Position numbers and translations under genes: made by a program. From Acidimicrobiales bacterium (GTDB lineage: Bacteria; Actinomycetota; Acidimicrobiia; Acidimicrobiales; GCA-2861595): a DNA stretch of 64,000 nucleotides. Positions within the stretch are counted from its first letter, which is position 1. Each line of letters starts with the position of its first letter. The stretch spans positions 667 through 64,666 of the forward strand of contig DATLOM010000005.1 of assembly GCA_035536185.1 (NCBI GenBank). The letters run 5' to 3'. Of the stretch, positions 3,944 to 27,299 are shown piece after piece. The notes under the pieces are model-generated. The model searched no databases. It was given only the letters and a program-made list of their open reading frames with translations, and had not been told where the DNA came from.

Positions 3944-4414
3944 TCAGCGTGAAGCAGCCGTCGCGGCCGCGTCGAGACGCTGGAGGGTGGTGCGCATCCC
4001 CGCCTCGAGGTCGGCCTCCCGGTCCTTCACGCCGGTGGTGAGCCGGGTGACTAGGCGCGAGATCCGGCTGAGCGGCTTGGGCAATTCGAACGACTCCGTG
4101 ACCCGGGTCCCACCGTCGCCCAGCGCCTCGAAACGGTAACGCCACACCGCCGATGGGCGCTTCGCCCCTCCGACGGCGAAGGCGAGCTCCCTGTCTCGCT
4201 CCGCCACCGTCACCTCGCAGGTGGTCGACCACTTCGTGCGGCCCCTTCGATTGTGGCCCTTGAAGCGCGCACCGGGTGAGGGCCCGGTGGCGCCGTCGAG
4301 CCACTCGGCCCGCTCGGTCTCAGGGCTCCACTCTCCCATGCGGGTGACATCGCTCACCATGGCCCCCAGCACATCGGGAGACGCTGTCATGTCCAAGCTG
4401 ACCTCACGGCGCAT
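3944..4414 (-). CDS. SRPBCC (START/polyketide cyclase-like) family protein
   Basis: 156 aa with the typical SRPBCC layout (SPDVLGAMVSDVTRMGEWSPE ... WRYRFEALGDGGTRVTESFE). Confidence 0.7.
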   Translation of the reverse strand: MRREVSLDMTASPDVLGAMVSDVTRMGEWSPETERAEWLDGATGPSPGARFKGHNRRGRTKWSTTCEVTVAERDRELAFAVGGAKRPSAVWRYRFEALGDGGTRVTESFELPKPLSRISRLVTRLTTGVKDREADLEAGMRTTLQRLDAAATAASR

Positions 4415-4471: not shown

Positions 4472-4723
4472 TCAACCGGTGGAGTCCTCGCCGACCTCTC
4501 GAAGAGCGGTCCTCAGCGCGGCGTGCAGGCGCCGCGCCGTTTCGGGGGAGAGGTGGGCCACCAGCCCCGACCCCGGCCTTCCCACCTCCTCCACGGTCAG
4601 CTCGACCCGAAGGTCGCCACATTCGTCGCAGTCGTCCAGGACGGCCACGGCCCAGGCGAGCTGAGCCCGCTCCGGGTCATCGGCGGGGTGATCGTCACGG
4701 CCGTAGTCGGCAAGCTTCTTCAC
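4472..4723 (-). CDS. Small acidic hypothetical protein (83 aa), paralog 1
   Basis: GTG start. It is near-identical at protein level to 8603..8854 despite about 29 nucleotide differences, which argues for real coding sequence. No family recognised. Confidence 0.75.
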   Translation of the reverse strand: MKKLADYGRDDHPADDPERAQLAWAVAVLDDCDECGDLRVELTVEEVGRPGSGLVAHLSPETARRLHAALRTALREVGEDSTG

Positions 4724-4782: not shown

Positions 4783-5319
4783 TCAGGCGAGGCGGGCGAG
4801 AATGCCCCGGGCCTCGGCCGCGTCGGCCGCCCGGCGGGCCACCTCGGCCACGTCGCGAAGGGTGGCCAGCTCATGACGGCGGAGGAGATCCTTCACCTCC
4901 CCGAGGGCGCCCGGCACCATCGACAGCTCCCGCACGCCGAGCCCTACCAGGGCGGCCGCCACCTCGGGGTCGCTGGCGGTCTCCCCGCGCACGCCCACCC
5001 AGGTGCCGTACTGGTCGGCGTTGGCCACCACGTGGGCGATCAGGTCCAGCACCAGCGGCTCGCACACGTCGGTCAGCTCGGCCACCTCGGCCACCAGGCG
5101 GTCGACAGCGAACAGGTACTGGAGCAAGTCGTTGGTCCCGACCGAGAAGAAGTCGACGTGCGGGGCGATCCGGCCGGCGGCCAGCGCCGCCGACGGCACC
5201 TCGATCGTCACCCCCACCTCCACGCCGTCGAGGGAGACACCCTCGTCACCGGCCACCCGTTCCAGTTCGCTGCGGGCGGCGACAACCTCGTCGACCCGGC
5301 TGACGAGGGGGAACAGCAC
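4783..5319 (-). pseudogene. C-terminal fragment of a PEP-utilizing enzyme (PtsI/Enzyme I-like TIM-barrel tail)
   Basis: The 178 aa match only the last third of Enzyme I (MLFPLVSRVDEV..., VDFFSVGTNDLLQY, GETASDPEV). Only 45 nt separate it from the upstream gene, so the N-terminal two-thirds is absent. Confidence 0.65.
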
Positions 5320-5364: not shown

Positions 5365-6321
5365 CTACTCCGGCGAGGCGTGAGCCTTTCGCCACCGGCG
5401 GATCCCGGCCGCGGTAGCGAACGAGGACGCGGCCGCCGCCGCCAGGGCGAGCAGGAGGGCTGGTACGGCCGGCACCGCACGGTCCCGACTGGAGCTCGCA
5501 TGATCTCCCGACAGCGCCGTCTCCTCGTCCCCTTCTTCGGTCGACCCGCTGGCGGTTGTCGGCTCGTCCGGGGAGGGCGAGGTCTCGTCCGGGGAGGGTG
5601 GCCGCGCCGGCTCTGCGGCGGGCGAAGTGGGACCGCCCCCTCCGGACGGCGGCGGGGGGCTCTGGGCCGACGTAGAGGACCCGCCGGTGCTGGTGGAGGA
5701 CGGTGGGCGATAGCCCTCGACAGGTACCGGCTGGCGACCGTCGTAGTAGCGGGGGTCCGGCTCGGCGGGCATGGAGGGAGCCTCACTACGGGCCGAGGCC
5801 TCAGCCCGTGAGTTCGGAGGAGGCGGGTCCGATCCCGATCCTCCCGAGCTGGGTGCCGGGCCCGGCCCGGTCTGGTTGGGCGGTGGGTTGCCTGGGGCGG
5901 TCTCTGAGCCGCTCGTCTGGCTGTGCGGTTGAGGATCGTTCGGACTGTCGACCATGAAGGGGGCGCCGGCGCTTGAAGATGACTGCCGGGCGACGATGAG
6001 CTCGGTGTAGTCGTCCCCGTGCTCGGCCGAGGTCGGGATCTGCACCTGGACGCTGAACTTGCCGTAGGAGTCCGCGACAGCTGATCCCATGCGGAGATCC
6101 GTCGACCCCCAATAGATCTCGACCAGCCCCTGCCAGTAACGGCCCATCACCGCCACCCTGATGCCCACCGGCCCCGAGGTCGGGTTGAGGGTGATCTCCG
6201 GCGGATAGCTCCCGAGATCGGGTACCTGGGCATGGCTCGTCGCCACCCCACCGAACATCGGCCCAGCGCCAGCGGCGATGACCGCCGCCAGGAGCGCCAC
6301 CCGGCTCCTCTTCGGACCCAC
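5365..6321 (-). CDS. Secreted/cell-surface protein with Pro/Ser/Gly-rich stalk and C-terminal membrane anchor
   Basis: Signal peptide (RVALLAAVIAAGAGPMFGGVATSHA), an Ig/IPT-like N-domain, a long low-complexity P/S/G region, then a hydrophobic segment and basic tail ([25 protein letters not shown]). No LPXTG motif. Confidence 0.7.
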   Translation of the reverse strand: MGPKRSRVALLAAVIAAGAGPMFGGVATSHAQVPDLGSYPPEITLNPTSGPVGIRVAVMGRYWQGLVEIYWGSTDLRMGSAVADSYGKFSVQVQIPTSAEHGDDYTELIVARQSSSSAGAPFMVDSPNDPQPHSQTSGSETAPGNPPPNQTGPGPAPSSGGSGSDPPPPNSRAEASARSEAPSMPAEPDPRYYDGRQPVPVEGYRPPSSTSTGGSSTSAQSPPPPSGGGGPTSPAAEPARPPSPDETSPSPDEPTTASGSTEEGDEETALSGDHASSSRDRAVPAVPALLLALAAAAASSFATAAGIRRWRKAHASPE

Positions 6322-6448
6322 CCCATTCTCCCTTCCTTGCTTTCAAATCGTCGCGCCAAATGGAGCCGGTCGCAAGCAGATCGGGAGAAATGGCGGTCAA
6401 GCAACTGAGCAGGTCGTTCCACCACGCCGTTGGGAACCACCGGAGCGG

Positions 6449-7624
6449 TTACGGGATGCGGATGGCGACGATGGCGATGTCGTCGCGGGGGTCGCCGGCT
6501 TGGAACTTCATGACCTCGTCGAGCACGCCCTGGGCGAGCGCGGCCGCCGAGTCGCCAGCACCGGCGATCGCTGCGGCCAGGTTCTCCTCGCCGAAGAAGT
6601 TCTTGCCATGGCGGCCTTCGGTGACGCCGTCGGTGTAGAGGAGCATGCTGTCGCCCGACTGCAGGAGCAGGTCGGTGTCGCCGAGGTCGGGGTCCGGGAG
6701 CACACCCAGCAACGATCCGAAGATCCCGATCGGCGCCACCCGCTCCCGCGCCCGCCACAACAGCGGAGGCGGGTGGCCGGCGCAGCCGATCGTGGCTGTC
6801 CAGGCGGTGCCCGAGTGGCGCAGGCGCAGGAGGGTGACGGTGCAGAACCGGTCGGTCTCGTGGTGCAGTAGCACCTCGTTGAGGGTCGTGAGGATGTCGG
6901 TGGGCCGGCGCTGGTTGACGGCGGCGGCGCGGATGGTGTGGCGAGCCAGCGCGGTGACGGCAGCCGCCTCCACCCCTTTGCCGCAGACGTCCCCGATGGC
7001 CACCACCCAGTCTCCCGAACCGATCTCGAAGATGTCGTAGAAGTCGCCGCCCACCTCCTCGCCGCTGCCGGCGGGGCGGTAGACGGCGGCGATGTCCAGT
7101 CCCTCGATGGTCGGCGGCGTGGGCGGGATCAGGGTCCGCTGGAGCGTCCTCGCCAGCAGGGTCGCCCGAGCTTCGGAGGCCTCGGCAAGTTCCTTGGCGC
7201 GAACGAGCTCCCGCTCGTACTCCCGGCGGTCCGTGGCGTCGAACACCGCGGTGCGCACCACCACCGGCGAGCCGCTGTCGTCGCGCTCGAGGATCGAGTT
7301 CACGAGCACCGGCAGGCGCTTTCCGTCGGTGCGCACGAGGTCGAGGGCGATCTCCCGGGCGCTGCCCTGCATCTGCAGCATGGGCGCGTAGTGCGTCTCG
7401 TGGTAGATCCGCCCGCCGGCGGTCAGGAGGTCCGCGAACCTGCGCCGCCCGACGAGATCCTCGCGGGAGTACCCAGTGAGGGTGAGCAACGTCTGGTTGA
7501 CCTTGACGATCGTGCCATCGGGCATCGTGGACAGGTACCCGCAGGGTGCCCGCTCGTAGAGAGCGGCGGGATCGTCGTCGAGGAGCGCCCCGTAGAACGC
7601 GTCGGCCGCCTTCTCGCTGCTCAT
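6449..7624 (-). CDS. PAS-domain PP2C/SpoIIE-family serine phosphatase (RsbP-like)
   Basis: The ATG at 7624 was chosen because the listed ORF start at 7717 would overlap the upstream gene. It has an N-terminal PAS-like region and PP2C motifs GGDFYDIF, IGDVCGKGVEAA, LLYTDGVTEG, RDDIAIVAIR. Confidence 0.85.
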   Translation of the reverse strand: MSSEKAADAFYGALLDDDPAALYERAPCGYLSTMPDGTIVKVNQTLLTLTGYSREDLVGRRRFADLLTAGGRIYHETHYAPMLQMQGSAREIALDLVRTDGKRLPVLVNSILERDDSGSPVVVRTAVFDATDRREYERELVRAKELAEASEARATLLARTLQRTLIPPTPPTIEGLDIAAVYRPAGSGEEVGGDFYDIFEIGSGDWVVAIGDVCGKGVEAAAVTALARHTIRAAAVNQRRPTDILTTLNEVLLHHETDRFCTVTLLRLRHSGTAWTATIGCAGHPPPLLWRARERVAPIGIFGSLLGVLPDPDLGDTDLLLQSGDSMLLYTDGVTEGRHGKNFFGEENLAAAIAGAGDSAAALAQGVLDEVMKFQAGDPRDDIAIVAIRIP

Positions 7625-7640
7625 CTCGACCGATGAGCTG

Positions 7641-8438
7641 TCAGCCACGCACGAAGGCCGCGATCGCCTCGAACGTCTCGTCGGGCGCGCTGAGGTTCGG
7701 GCAGTGCCCGGTGGCATCGAGCATCACGAGCTTCGCGTCGGGAATCGTGTCCCGGACGAACTCGCCGACGGCGACCGGTGCGATGGCGTCGTTGGTGCAC
7801 TGCAGCACGAGCGTGGGCGTAGGAACCTTGGCGAGGTCGGCGCGGTTGTCCGACAGGAATGTGACCCCGGCAAACTGGCGGGCGATGTCGGGATCGCTCC
7901 GGCAGAAGCTGGCGGTGAGCTCTTCACCCAGCTCGGGCCGGTCGGGAGCCCCCATGATCACCGGCGCCATGGCACTGGACCATCCCAGGTAGTTGCTCTC
8001 CAGCGACTCGAGCAGCTCCTCGATGTCGTCCCTGGCGAAGCCGCCGAGGTAGGAGCCTTCGTCGATGTAGCGGGGGGACGGGCCCACGAGGACGAGCTTG
8101 GCGAAGAGGTCCGGCTCCTTGATCGCCGCCAGTACCCCCATCATCGAAGCGACGGAATGGCCGACGAAGATGACGTCACTGAGGTCAAGCTCGTGGCAGA
8201 TGTCGACCACGTCGTCGGCGTAGGCGTGGAGTGAGGTGTAGCGCCCAGGGTCGTACGACGACGTGTCCGAGCCTCCGGCGCCCATGTGGTCGAACAGCAC
8301 CACCTTGAAGTCGGGTTCGAAGCGCGGCGCCACGAAGCGCCACATGTTCTGGTCGCACCCGAAGCCATGGGCGAACAACATGGCCTGGCCGTCCGGCCAC
8401 CCGGAGATCACGAGGTTGTGGCGTTCTGCAACACCCAT
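7641..8438 (-). CDS. RsbQ / D14 / KAI2-family alpha/beta hydrolase
   Basis: 265 aa with nucleophile elbow GHSVASMMG, Asp in CTNDAIAP and His in ATGHCPNLSAP. It ends 16 nt before the PP2C gene. Confidence 0.85.
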   Translation of the reverse strand: MGVAERHNLVISGWPDGQAMLFAHGFGCDQNMWRFVAPRFEPDFKVVLFDHMGAGGSDTSSYDPGRYTSLHAYADDVVDICHELDLSDVIFVGHSVASMMGVLAAIKEPDLFAKLVLVGPSPRYIDEGSYLGGFARDDIEELLESLESNYLGWSSAMAPVIMGAPDRPELGEELTASFCRSDPDIARQFAGVTFLSDNRADLAKVPTPTLVLQCTNDAIAPVAVGEFVRDTIPDAKLVMLDATGHCPNLSAPDETFEAIAAFVRG

Positions 8439-8602
8439 GGCGTGAGGCTATGGTCGCCGACCCACGCTCACCGAGTCGCTTCCTCTGGAAGTAGCTCGAG
8501 GTTTGCGGCCTCCAGCGCGAACAGGCCATCTACGACGGGGTCGTGGGTTCGGCCGGCACCGTCGGCGATTCCGCGGAATCGTGATCTGCTGGCCGCTGGC
8601 GA

Positions 8603-8854
8603 CTAAGGGGCCAGGTCCTCGCCGACCTCTCGAAGGGCTGTCCTGAGGGCGGCGTGCAGGCGACGAGCTGTCTCGGGGGAGAGGTGGGCAACGAGGCCTG
8701 AACCTGGGCTTCCGACCTCCTCCACGGTCAGTTCGACTCGAAGGTCGCCGCACTCGTCGCAGTCGTCGAGGACGGCGACGGCCCAGGCGAGCTGCGCCCT
8801 TTCGGGGTCATCGGCAGGGTGATCGTCTCGGCCGTAATCGGCAAGCTTCTTCAC
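8603..8854 (-). CDS. Small acidic hypothetical protein (83 aa), paralog 2
   Basis: The GTG at 8854 matches the start context of 4472..4723 (cttcttcacgtacggagtgaa is conserved). The listed ORF start at 8923 adds a non-conserved extension. Confidence 0.75.
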   Translation of the reverse strand: MKKLADYGRDDHPADDPERAQLAWAVAVLDDCDECGDLRVELTVEEVGSPGSGLVAHLSPETARRLHAALRTALREVGEDLAP

Positions 8855-9136
8855 GTACGGAGTGAAGCATGAACAGGACTCGGGCGCTTGCCCAGCATCG
8901 GGGATCAACCGGAGTCCCCCCACCCGGTGCCACCGTGCCCCATAACTGATCGAGCACCGCGGTCACGCCGTCGGGGCGGCTCGCACGGTGGGCCGGCGTA
9001 GGAGGCCACCAGGCTGCGGTCGCACGCCTTGGGGGGCGGTTCCTGATCTCCGTGTCGGCTGCCCTGGACGGAGACATCGCTGTGGGTTCCGCGGAATCCC
9101 CAGTGGCGGGAGGTCGCTCCGGGCCCTGGGCTCACG

Positions 9137-9550
9137 TCACACCGAATGCTCCTGTCCGGCTCGTGCGAGCTGACCGGTTTCGGGTCGGCCGGTGGTGAGA
9201 ACACAGTCGTCCAGGGCGCGGCACTCGCAATCCAGACTGTCCTCCAGCAGGCGGCGCGTGAGCTTGGCCTTCTCGATGAGCGCACCGACCTCGGCCAGCT
9301 TGCGCTGGGCCAGAGGTTTCCAGCGCTCGGGTGTGCACCCGTCCTCCACCAGGAGCTCGCGGATCTCGGCGATGGTGAACCCGCAGGACTGTACCGACGC
9401 GATCAGGCGGAGGCGCTCGAGCACCGATTCGGGATAGAGCCGGCGCCCGCCCTGGCGAGCGGGGGACGTGATCAGCCCGACCTCCTCGTAGTACCGCAGG
9501 GCCGACGGCCGAAGGCCGGTTCGCTCTGCCACCTCGGTGATGGAAATCAT
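9137..9550 (-). CDS. MerR-family transcriptional regulator
   Basis: N-terminal HTH ISITEVAERTGLRPSALRYYEEVGLI followed by a coiled-coil and a Cys-containing C-terminus (DCECRALDDC). Confidence 0.9.
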   Translation of the reverse strand: MISITEVAERTGLRPSALRYYEEVGLITSPARQGGRRLYPESVLERLRLIASVQSCGFTIAEIRELLVEDGCTPERWKPLAQRKLAEVGALIEKAKLTRRLLEDSLDCECRALDDCVLTTGRPETGQLARAGQEHSV

Positions 9551-9588: not shown

Positions 9589-10386
9589 ATGACCGAGAAT
9601 CCCTGCTCCCTCCAGCCCCGACAGTTGACCGCGAGGATCGAGGATTGGCGCCTTCTCGCCCCCGCCATCCTCGGACGCGAACAGACCGCGGCCGGCGCCA
9701 GGCTGCGCTTCCGCGTCGACCCGGGGCTGGCGGACAGAGTCGTCGAGCTCGTCCACCTGGTCGATGCCGAGCGGCAGTGCTGCCCCGCCTTGACGTTCAA
9801 CCTCGAGCTGACACTCGACGTACATGCGCCCGAGGAGCTGCGGGGATGGGTGGCCGATACGTTCGTGCTCAACGTGGAGAGGGCCGGCCATGGGGCCGAG
9901 GAGCCGCAGGCACGGCTGACCGAGAACGATTCGTCCGCGCTGAGAGCAGAGAGAGCCACCGCCGGCGGTGACCCCGAGGGGATCGAAGAGGCGGTACGGC
10001 GCCATTACGCGGCAGTGGCCGAAGGCGGCTCGTGTTGCACCTCTACGCGGGCGTGCGGCTCTGCCGGGGAGCTCGCGGTCATCGGGGCGGGTGGCTATCC
10101 GGATGCCGAGGTAGAAGGCCTTCCGGGTCCGGCGCTCGCCGCCAGCGCCGGCTGCGCCAACCCGGTCGCCGTCGCCGAGCTGGCGCCCGGCGAGACGGTG
10201 CTGGACCTCGGCTCCGGCGGGGGGATCGACGTGTTGCTGTCGGCTCGCCGCGTGGGGCCCACCGGCAAGGCCTACGGGCTCGACATGACCGACGAGATGC
10301 TCGCGCTGGCCGAGAGGAACAAGGCGGCGGCCGGTGCAGACAACGTCGAGCTCCTCAGGGGCCGCATCGAGGCCATCCAACGTTGA
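9589..10386 (+). pseudogene. CC-motif domain fused to a C-terminally truncated ArsM-like SAM methyltransferase
   Basis: The methyltransferase motifs GETVLDLGSGGGID and GLDMTDEML are present. The ORF stops at RGRIEAIQR, before the rest of the Rossmann fold. Confidence 0.5.
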
Positions 10387-25109: not shown

Positions 25110-25484
<375 letters not shown>

Positions 25485-25505
25485 TTCTCCCCCGCCGGCG
25501 CCGGT

Positions 25506-27299
25506 TCACATCCGGTCCGGTGCCTCGATCCCCAGCAGGTCCAGACCGTGGGCCAGCACCCGCGCCGTCACGTCGCACAGCGCCAGCCGGGATCTGCGCT
25601 GCTCGTCGGAATCGGCCCGCAGGATCGGGCAGTGCTCGTAGAACGTGGTGAAGGCGCTGGCCAGGTCGAACAGGTAGGTGCACAGCCGGTGGGGCTGTAG
25701 CAGCTCCGCCGTCTGCTGCACGGCGCCGTCGAAGGCCAGCAACTGCAGGGCCAACGCCCGCTCCGTGGGCTCCTCGATGACCACGGCGCCGGCGTCCGCA
25801 CCCGAGCCCGCACCGGAGCCCACACCCGAGCCAGCCACGGATCCTTCCTCCCCGGCCCGCCGGAAGATGGAGCAGATGCGGGCCCGGGCGTACTGCAGGT
25901 ACGGGGCGGTGTTGCCGTCGAACGACAGCATCCGGTCCCAGTCGAAGGCGTAGTCCCGCAGCCGGTCGTTGGAGAGGTCGGCGTACTTGAGGGCGCCGAT
26001 GCCCACCGCGTGGGCCACGGCTGAACGCTCCGAAATGTCCAGCTCCCTGCCGTTCTCGGTGACCACGGCCTGGGCCCGCTCCACCGCCTCCTCCACCAGG
26101 TCGGCCAGCTTGACGGTCCCGCCCGTGCGGGTTTTGAACGGCCGCCCGTCCGGCCCCAGCACAGTCCCGAAAGCCACGTGCTCGGCCCGCCGGTCGCCGT
26201 CCAGCCAGCCCGCCTGCTCGGCGACGGCGAAGACCATGGCGAAGTGCTGGCTCTGGCGGGCGTCCACCACGTAGGCGATCCGGCGGGCATCCAGATCCCG
26301 CACCCGGAAGCGGAGGGCGGTGAGGTCGGTGGCGTCGTAGCCGTAGCCGCCGTCGCTCTTGCGCACGATCAGGGGCAGCGGCTGGCCCTCGCGGCCCACG
26401 AAACCGGGCGGGAAGGCGCACAGGGCGCCCTGGTCCACGACGAGCAGCCCCAGCTTCTGCAGCTCCTCGACCGTCTCGCCGAGCAGGGAGTTGTAGAAGC
26501 TCTCCCCCCGGAGGTCCTCGGGCACCAGGCACACGCCCAGCCGCTCGTACACCGCCTGAAAATGACGCTGGGACTCGGCCACTAGCGCCCGCCACAGCGC
26601 CAGTGTCGTCTCGTCGCCACCCTGCAGCGTGACGACGCGGGCCCGGGCCCGGTCGGCGAAAGCAGTGTCGGCCTCGAACTTGGTGCGGGCCTCCTGGTAA
26701 AAGGCGTCGAGGTCCCCGATCGAAGGGCTCTGCCCACCCGCTTCGGCACCGAGATCCACCAGGTGCTCGATGAGCATGCCGAAGGGCGTGCCCCAGTCGC
26801 CCAGGTGGTTCTGGCGGATGACCCGATGGCCGACGGCGCCGAGGGTGCGGACCAGGGCGTCGCCGATCACCGTGCTGCGCAGGTGGCCGACGTGCATCTC
26901 CTTGGCCACGTTGGGCCCCGAGTAGTCGACCACCACCGTCTCGGGCGTATCCGCCTGGGCGATGCCCAGCATTTCGTCGGCAGCCACCGCGGTGACGGCG
27001 GCGGCCAGATGGTCGGCCCGCATGGTGAGGTTGATGAACCCCGGGCCCGCCACCTCGACCTTCTCGCACAGCGCGCCGACGTCGAGCACGGCGACGATGG
27101 CCTGGGCCACGTCTCTCGGGCTGCTCTTCAGGAGCCGGGCCAGCCCCATGGCCACGTTGGCCTGGTAGTCCCCGAACTGCGGTTGCTGGGAGCGCCGGAG
27201 CTGGGGATCGGTGCCGGCGTAATCCGGGCCGAAAGCCTCGGTGATGGCGGCTTCGAAGGGCGCCAGCAGGGTGCGCAGGGGGTCGGCCATCTGCATCAT
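25506..27299 (-). CDS. argS: Arginine--tRNA ligase
   Basis: HVGHLRS (HIGH) motif and full-length class-I ArgS architecture. A short Gly/Ser-rich insert (GSVAGSGVGSGAGSGADAG) is present. Confidence 0.95.
   Translation of the reverse strand: MMQMADPLRTLLAPFEAAITEAFGPDYAGTDPQLRRSQQPQFGDYQANVAMGLARLLKSSPRDVAQAIVAVLDVGALCEKVEVAGPGFINLTMRADHLAAAVTAVAADEMLGIAQADTPETVVVDYSGPNVAKEMHVGHLRSTVIGDALVRTLGAVGHRVIRQNHLGDWGTPFGMLIEHLVDLGAEAGGQSPSIGDLDAFYQEARTKFEADTAFADRARARVVTLQGGDETTLALWRALVAESQRHFQAVYERLGVCLVPEDLRGESFYNSLLGETVEELQKLGLLVVDQGALCAFPPGFVGREGQPLPLIVRKSDGGYGYDATDLTALRFRVRDLDARRIAYVVDARQSQHFAMVFAVAEQAGWLDGDRRAEHVAFGTVLGPDGRPFKTRTGGTVKLADLVEEAVERAQAVVTENGRELDISERSAVAHAVGIGALKYADLSNDRLRDYAFDWDRMLSFDGNTAPYLQYARARICSIFRRAGEEGSVAGSGVGSGAGSGADAGAVVIEEPTERALALQLLAFDGAVQQTAELLQPHRLCTYLFDLASAFTTFYEHCPILRADSDEQRRSRLALCDVTARVLAHGLDLLGIEAPDRM

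Follow-up and report, generated by a model that had tools for sequence, protein, structure and literature searches.

We identified, in the genome of an uncultured soil actinobacterium of the order Acidimicrobiales, a two-gene cassette that encodes an RsbQ-type alpha/beta hydrolase and, directly downstream, an RsbP-type phosphatase made up of a PAS domain, a helical linker and a PP2C domain. The cassette lies on the minus strand of a stretch of 64,000 nucleotides (nt; hereafter the window, contig C5:667-64666) from a genome of 3.04 Mb in 79 contigs that is 95% complete. The cassette is real, intact and ordinary, a further member of an already described sensor family; very likely it constitutes a bicistronic rsbQ-rsbP-type RsbQ-PAS module with a PPM/PP2C output, which would act as an accessory input to the resident partner-switching network. 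An earlier note on this DNA had read the pair as rsbQ-rsbP-like: its open reading frames (ORFs), motifs, 16-nt spacing and protein lengths of 265 and 391 amino acids (aa) are as described there, and the two points on which that reading was checked, the placement of the hydrolase in the RsbQ/KAI2 clade and the co-conservation of the two genes, both hold. The features of the cassette are:

7641..8438, minus strand: RsbQ-type alpha/beta hydrolase, 265 aa; triad S95/D217/H245; pocket F26/Y124/L142
6449..7624, minus strand: RsbP-type PAS / helical linker / PP2C (SpoIIE family) phosphatase, 391 aa from the ATG at 7624
GTG 7648 (in-frame), minus strand: alternative phosphatase start, giving 399 aa and an 8-nt overlap with the hydrolase stop
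7229..7546, minus strand: RsbP-class PAS domain, N-terminal, residues 27-132, with the near-invariant F-alpha motif GGRIYHETHYAP (residues 70-81)
7130..7234, minus strand: single long alpha-helix linking PAS domain to phosphatase, residues 131-165 (DSSP on the AlphaFold2 model)
6455..7018, minus strand: PP2C catalytic domain, residues 203-390 (Pfam SpoIIE)
8445..8450, minus strand: -10-like hexamer TAGCCT, 6 nt 5′ of the hydrolase ATG, read from the sequence
8439..8482, minus strand: 44-nt upstream block that moves with the cassette, 89% nucleotide homology with relative L020

The TGA stop codon of the hydrolase gene is separated by 16 nt from the phosphatase ATG at 7624, and the GTG at 7648 overlaps this stop (sequence GTGGCTGA). 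The public gene call (P0121) uses the GTG start and predicts 399 aa, and the closest relative has an ATG at the position matching the GTG of the window; the true phosphatase start is thus ambiguous between the two codons. A bicistronic unit is implied under either start, and the hydrolase and phosphatase genes are probably translationally coupled.

Phylogenetic placement of the hydrolase

The hydrolase carries the motifs FVGHSVASMMG, LQCTNDAIAP, and GHCPNLSAP, and was assigned by Pfam to Abhydrolase_6/_1 (E 1.7e-23); NCBIfam holds no RsbQ model. When searched with phmmer against all PDB sequences, its best match is Bacillus subtilis RsbQ (1WOM; E 2.5e-87, 295.7 bits), followed by Oleispira Olei00960 at 232.7 bits and by some 55 plant KAI2/D14/HTL chains at 159-210 bits, whereas the next esterase family reaches 60 bits. 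The protein shares 48% identity with RsbQ and 38% with KAI2-like proteins. Its triad residues S95/D217/H245 align with RsbQ S96/D219/H247 and are invariant in 80 homologues, and the pocket residues F26/Y124/L142 correspond to RsbQ F27/Y125/L144, the same columns holding F/Y, Y/F, and L/M across the 80 homologues. RsbQ F27, Y125 and L144 are pocket residues common to RsbQ and eu-KAI2 proteins (Melville et al., bioRxiv 10.1101/2023.12.05.570042). In a maximum-likelihood tree, the hydrolase, the 80 homologues, RsbQ, Olei00960 and three KAI2-type proteins form one clade, which is set apart from the two other similar hydrolases of this genome by a long branch with 99% support in the SH-like approximate likelihood ratio test (SH-aLRT); the tree came from a quick search with long outgroup branches, and it does not reliably resolve where the long RsbQ and plant branches fall within the clade. 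The membership in the RsbQ/KAI2/D14 clade that the earlier note had proposed is borne out by this phylogeny and by the PDB scores, and we place the hydrolase as a true member of the clade.

Domain structure of the phosphatase

Pfam identified two domains in the phosphatase, PAS_9 (residues 27-132, E 1.5e-15) and SpoIIE (residues 203-390, E 2.7e-45), the latter covering positions 2-191 of the 192-position profile. In the AlphaFold2 model, which is a monomer with a mean predicted local distance difference test score (pLDDT) of 84.8, the protein consists of an N-terminal cap, a PAS domain (29-129), a helix (131-165), and a PP2C domain (176-389). The helix is continuous by DSSP (block pLDDT 74-84) and is presumed to be a coiled-coil, signal-transmitting linker. 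The metal-binding motifs of the PP2C domain are intact (GGDFYD, GDVCGKG, TDGVTE, and PRDD), and residues D194, D197, D212, G215, D332, D381, and D382 are invariant in 36 homologues; the domain is accordingly predicted to be catalytically complete. Its sequence matches in the PDB are Rv1364c (3KE6, the best, E 3.1e-12), SpoIIE, RssB, and SiaA, and Foldseek on the model found SpoIIE, Pseudomonas aeruginosa RssB, the RsbU domain of Rv1364c, and SiaA; these structural neighbors are the partner-switching branch of the PPM family.

In the PDB sequence search with the phosphatase, nothing matched the PAS or linker region and none of the chains found bore the name RsbP; for this reason the comparison with B. 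subtilis RsbP uses a sequence checked only against PMC3183031, with whose ten numbered residues and length of 403 aa it agrees. The residues described there as markers of the RsbP-PAS class are C10, L13, L48, Q53, F55, C56, Y59, E72, and P86, plus a conserved P62. Against this RsbP sequence, BLASTP gave 25% identity over residues 26-336 (E 1e-28); six of the class residues are identical (C28/L31/L67/P81/E91/P105 for RsbP C10/L13/L48/P62/E72/P86), and the remaining four are substituted: F55 by Y74 (conservative), C56 by H75, Y59 by H78, and Q53 by R72. All four replacements (Y74, H75, H78, and R72) are the majority residues among 78 PAS domains encoded beside RsbQ homologues, in which the motif GGR[IL][YF][HY]ETHYAP is almost invariant across phyla; H78 is kept in 77 of the 78. 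In the alignment, H75 falls on the heme-ligand position that PMC3183031 discusses for Dos/FixL. Residues 75-89 (window 7358-7402, RIYHETHYAPMLQMQG) form the most conserved stretch of the PAS domain and are also the sole segment with pLDDT <50; we speculate that this part of F-alpha may become ordered only upon contact with its partner.

Conservation of the gene pair and variety of its outputs

We scanned one genome per species and found at least 598 genomes with a close hydrolase homologue; the best 80 of these, which are 61-77% identical to the hydrolase, were used for comparison. They come from seven phyla (Actinomycetota, Acidobacteriota, Pseudomonadota, Myxococcota, Bacteroidota, Bdellovibrionota, and Armatimonadota). 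In 79 of the 80 species-level loci, a PAS-headed gene starts within ∼100 nt 3′ of the hydrolase gene, and at least 51 of these 79 downstream genes contain a PP2C domain (counted by a strict same-frame tblastn criterion, which missed a few more), in agreement with the co-conservation expected of an rsbQ-rsbP-like pair. The overlapping pair recurs in three close relatives, each time in a different, unrelated neighborhood. Compared with the closest relative, dN/dS (the ratio of non-synonymous to synonymous substitution rates) is 0.25 for both genes and dS is 0.26 and 0.28; the equal ratios and near-equal dS indicate joint inheritance of the two genes, with purifying selection on both. The system is intact, and its sequence suggests that it is probably functional.

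Other relatives carry different outputs behind the PAS domain:

HisKA-HATPase_c output after PAS: Bradyrhizobium, Gaiellaceae, Nocardioides
hybrid kinase with receiver after PAS: Acidobacteriota, Corallococcus, Microvirga
PAS-GAF-PAS-kinase: Bdellovibrionia
PAS-GAF-PP2C-HATPase_c_2: Micromonospora

In the last of these, a protein of ∼810 aa in Micromonosporaceae (L046:6816-9242), the RsbQ-associated PAS domain is followed by GAF, PP2C, and a C-terminal RsbW-type HATPase_c_2 domain, so that the phosphatase and an anti-sigma-type kinase are fused behind the RsbQ-PAS sensor. The same fusion is found in L068, L074, L083, L086, and L092 (together with L046, these represent Micromonospora, Actinoplanes, Pseudosporangium, and Symbioplanes), and it is not among the three output classes named in the text of PMC3183031.

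Comparison with known systems

The “RsbQ-PAS bipartite sensing module” was described by Nadezhdin, Brody and Price (PLoS One 2011, PMC3183031), whose text reports 45 adjacent pairs of RsbQ and RsbP-PAS genes, with the PAS domain always N-terminal and a predicted coiled-coil leading to a PPM phosphatase, a histidine kinase or a diguanylate cyclase. The paper also gives genetic evidence that RsbQ binding requires F55 and Y59 of F-alpha. PPM-phosphatase outputs were reported in Gram-positives, including Streptomyces ambofaciens and S. pristinaespiralis with two copies each (PMC3183031), and the idea that the module might be new in actinobacteria consequently falls. An AlphaFold2 model of the 2RsbP/2RsbQ complex places RsbQ at the PAS/linker junction, and activation was proposed to proceed via linker-controlled PP2C dimerization (Baral et al., eLife 2025, PMC12143880). 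RsbQ has been shown to bind synthetic butenolides, to hydrolyse them and to mediate a transcriptional response that they elicit, and its natural ligand is still unknown (Melville et al., bioRxiv 10.1101/2023.12.05.570042); the earlier note was right about the natural ligand, and the perception of synthetic butenolides updates it.

The cassette has the arrangement of the published module, i.e., an RsbQ homologue directly 5′ of a protein with a most N-terminal RsbP-type PAS domain, followed by a helical linker and a PPM/PP2C output, and the outputs of its relatives (PP2C, histidine kinase, and hybrid kinase) match the variety set out in the text of PMC3183031. Nothing essential differs, apart from the host being an uncultured member of the Acidimicrobiales and the mRNA being probably leaderless (see below). 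In addition, JGI annotates close homologues as “sigma-B regulation protein RsbQ” and “RsbU/P”.

The likeness to B. subtilis rsbQ-rsbP extends to gene order and tight coupling, to a hydrolase with the same triad and pocket residues, and to a phosphatase with the same PAS / helix / PP2C layout (391-399 aa vs. 403 aa); the genome also has an RsbV-like STAS protein, an RsbW-like kinase and a SigB/F/G-family sigma factor. It differs from the RsbP sequence used here in that identity is ∼25%, the linker is ∼40 residues shorter and F55/C56/Y59 are replaced by Y/H/H, and from the B. subtilis system in that the target genes are unlinked and the target would be one of several candidates; energy stress is the cue known from Bacillus. 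With the plant KAI2/D14/HTL receptors the hydrolase shares the alpha/beta-hydrolase subfamily, the Ser-His-Asp triad, the F/Y/L pocket and, presumably, ligand hydrolysis coupled to a protein-protein interaction, but its partner is a PAS-phosphatase in bacterial cytoplasmic signaling and not an F-box protein (MAX2/D3) with degradation of SMXL proteins. Mycobacterium tuberculosis Rv1364c is a PAS-RsbU-RsbW-RsbV fusion and, among proteins of solved structure, the closest in sequence to the PP2C domain (3KE6). It is likewise an actinobacterial PAS-linked partner-switching phosphatase, but its phosphatase is fused to kinase and STAS domains, it lacks a hydrolase partner of the RsbQ type, and its PAS domain is not known to belong to the RsbP class.

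Candidate targets and proposed mechanism

Matches to PF01740, PF13466, PF13581, and PF04539, searched genome-wide, all lie off contig C5, so that, as the earlier note had said, the window holds no STAS (RsbV), RsbW or sigma factor gene. The genome-wide search for STAS antagonists that had been suggested found five single-domain STAS genes outside the cassette contig, four of which carry a phosphorylatable DS[STA]G motif. Small HATPase_c_2 (RsbW-type) proteins are encoded on C64, C61, C28, and C44. The genome has 11 SpoIIE-type PP2C genes, a single RsbQ-type hydrolase and a single PAS domain of the RsbP type; two of the PP2C genes are fused to HATPase_c_2, on C56 (671-aa frame) and on C22 (861-aa frame). 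At C44:25453-26624, an RsbW-like gene (25453-25875) is directly followed by the gene of a 250-aa sigma factor, which passes the SigB/SigF/SigG model TIGR02980 (277.8 bits, with a cut-off of 234). This locus has no STAS gene and must therefore be served by unlinked antagonists. At C64:71188-72036, a STAS gene and an RsbW-like kinase gene lie beside trkA genes, without a sigma factor. These STAS, RsbW and SigB/F/G components are plausible targets of the phosphatase, and the most economical reading is that the cassette would be one of many inputs onto a few antagonists controlling the C44 sigma factor. Converging-input networks of this kind are those of mycobacterial SigF and of the Streptomyces SigB-like factors.

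By analogy with B. subtilis RsbQ/RsbP and the RsbU model (precedents in PMC3183031 and PMC12143880), we propose the following mechanism. The hydrolase would bind a small butenolide-like ligand, and probably hydrolyse it, and would dock on the F-alpha face (around Y74/H78) of the PAS domains in a phosphatase dimer; docking would stiffen or re-register the helical linker and thereby switch on the PP2C domains. The active phosphatase may then act on a single-domain STAS (anti-anti-sigma) protein, one of five in the genome, and dephosphorylate its conserved serine; in this form the STAS protein would capture an RsbW-type anti-sigma kinase and free the SigB/F/G-family sigma factor of C44. The cassette would in this way be a patchy accessory input, one of the 11 SpoIIE-type PP2C genes feeding the partner-switching network.

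Cassette borders, promoter and genomic neighborhood

Nucleotide homology with the closest relative (L020; 89%) extends exactly from 8482 to 6451 and ends abruptly on both sides, the homologous span comprising the two genes plus 44 nt upstream; the 44-nt block (8439..8482) is presumably the promoter region. Within the order, the hydrolase is carried by 25 of 301 species-level genomes (18 of the 221 of high quality), and by 19 of 185 genera. The cassette is a self-contained, patchy two-gene unit. Scans of 6200-9200 for sigma-70 consensus promoters and intrinsic terminators found nothing, and no target-site duplications or inverted repeats were seen at the cassette borders. The hydrolase start lacks a Shine-Dalgarno sequence; a TANNNT box, first spotted by eye and then tested across loci L023-L102, precedes the start codon by 5-8 nt in 41 of 79 homologous loci (almost all of them actinobacterial), compared with 0.6% of random positions. 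These observations suggest that the rsbQ mRNA may be leaderless here, and that rsbQ-type genes may typically be leaderless in Actinomycetota. Proteobacterial and myxobacterial homologues have a Shine-Dalgarno-like GGAG/AGGA in place of TANNNT.

In another member of the Acidimicrobiia (L022), a DDE transposase gene and a transposase helix-turn-helix fragment (6903-7826 and 10209-10349) flank rsbQP, and the vicinity holds fragments of IS110 and IS21 as well as an SRPBCC (Polyketide_cyc2) gene. An SRPBCC gene (3944-4414) is likewise present in the window, where it lies ∼2 kb downstream of the cassette. A 178-aa ORF at 4783-5319 (minus strand) contains only the C-terminal half of PEP-utilizers_C (profile positions 140-291 of 293), suggesting a truncated gene of a PEP-utilising enzyme in a decaying or rearranged region. 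The downstream gene of a Pro-rich secreted protein (5365-6321) was rejected as an operon member, since the homology of the relatives ends at the phosphatase stop codon. Upstream of the pair, an ORF of 83-87 aa (8603-8866), with no Pfam or NCBIfam match, was rejected as a third component, as it is absent beside the pair in 83 related loci. Two 83-aa acidic ORFs (4472-4723 and 8603-8854, minus strand) lie in a 265-nt direct repeat, 88% identical, which brackets a 4.1-kb segment including rsbQP; they are the sole two copies in the genome. Between them dN/dS is 0.048 at a dS of 0.68, indicating that the ORF is a real, selected protein.

The earlier note had also pointed out a 14-nt palindrome at 8567-8580, about 130 nt upstream of the hydrolase. 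It does exist, at that distance, and is in fact a perfect palindrome of 16 nt (CGATTCCGCGGAATCG, 8566-8581, 129 nt 5′ of the hydrolase ATG), and a role as operator finds no support. We rejected it as a dedicated operator: it lies outside the conserved block, which ends at 8482, perfect 14-nt palindromes are as frequent in the window as by chance (12, vs. 9.8 in shuffles), and it is a genome-wide repeat. The palindromic word GATTCCGCGGAATC occurs twice in the window (8566-8581 and 9085-9098, with 0.04 expected), and its core has 25 copies in the genome; 15 of these form two arrays (of nine and six copies, spanning C18:155119-155660 and C25:1194-1455) in paralogous DUF222-HNH endonuclease genes (C25:303-2069 and C18:154448-156350), and further copies are on C20, C9, and C28. 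In the DUF222-HNH genes the word encodes a repeated peptide, DSAES, which is encoded on either strand because the word is palindromic; the C18 gene appears frameshifted. After the copy at 8566-8581 come short stretches with weak similarity to the tail of the DUF222-HNH protein (E 0.96 and 5.7), and this copy may be a relic of such a gene.

Alternative explanations

It is highly improbable that the hydrolase is an ordinary catabolic esterase or lactonase (e.g., of the 3-oxoadipate enol-lactonase type) whose adjacency to a PAS-phosphatase is incidental. Pfam does give the protein generic alpha/beta-hydrolase families only, and its best NCBIfam matches are the PcaD/PcaCD and BioH models; but their scores of 88-96 bits are far under the curated cut-offs of 255-430 bits, for which we rejected a PcaD/BioH-type enzyme, while the match to RsbQ reaches 295.7 bits, the same class of PAS domain adjoins the hydrolase in 79 of 80 species from seven phyla, and none of the loci examined has flanking catabolic genes. 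This alternative is already disfavored. The cassette might instead be a recent horizontal acquisition that sits in a decaying, rearranged island and is unwired to the host network or unexpressed, a scenario that fits the end of homology at the cassette borders, the presence of the hydrolase in only 25 of 301 genomes of the order, the nearby truncated PEP-utilising gene, duplicated small gene and possible HNH-gene remnant, and the transposase genes flanking one relative's copy. We hold it to be improbable: both genes are intact and keep all catalytic residues with a dN/dS of 0.25, there is a conserved -10-like element at the start codon, and the host has the partner-switching components that the phosphatase needs.

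A sensor of the same kind with a non-sigma output deserves more weight, although it too is not what we expect. Here the phosphatase would act on a STAS protein or other phosphoprotein controlling something else, such as the C64 pair or a BldG-like multi-target antagonist. Of the STAS/kinase pairs, the strongest (C64:71188-72036) indeed has no adjoining sigma gene, SiaA and RssB, which are SpoIIE-family proteins and structural neighbors of this phosphatase, act in sigma-free pathways, and 11 PP2C genes stand beside five STAS genes. On the other hand, a canonical operon of RsbW-like and SigB/F/G genes is present without a STAS gene of its own, and the founding member of the module feeds sigma-B.

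Several observations also weigh against an RsbQ-PAS module that feeds the partner-switching network. No target is encoded close to the cassette, and for the five STAS proteins there are 11 competing PP2C genes; the link to the C44 sigma factor is therefore pure inference. The equivalent of RsbP Y59, which serves RsbQ binding in Bacillus, is a histidine here; overall identity to the RsbP sequence is just 25%, and a gap in the BLASTP alignment with it shortens the linker region by ∼40 residues relative to the B. subtilis protein. AlphaFold2 models the conserved F-alpha motif at pLDDT <50. Finally, the organism is known from a metagenome-assembled genome alone, and the mechanism is read from sequence and analogy.

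Biological meaning

RsbQ-type receptors are bacterial relatives of the plant strigolactone and karrikin receptors, and this locus leaves the picture of their ligand and cue unchanged; ligand, cue and target STAS protein are family-wide questions, beyond the reach of sequence alone. What the locus does show is that the version with a phosphatase output is common but patchy in Acidimicrobiales and other Actinomycetota, and that it is a self-contained, traveling two-gene unit with its own predicted promoter and with its likely targets elsewhere in the genome. It is not a discovery; its practical value is that of a compact, intact candidate for biochemical ligand screens.

The conservation of the hydrolase across at least seven phyla and the near-invariance of the PAS motif RIYHETHYAP, with two histidines on the presumed hydrolase-contact helix, have led us to consider a further, rather unlikely idea: that soil bacteria carrying the module sense one common diffusible molecule, perhaps a butenolide, with the cassette as a horizontally moving plug-in receptor. 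Candidates for such a signal possibly include actinomycete hormones of the avenolide/SRB type and plant- or smoke-derived compounds similar to karrikins or strigolactones. If this were true, the cassette would couple a common signal to the partner-switch or two-component network of whichever recipient acquires it, and the small Acidimicrobiales pair would be a convenient minimal system in which to search for the natural ligand.

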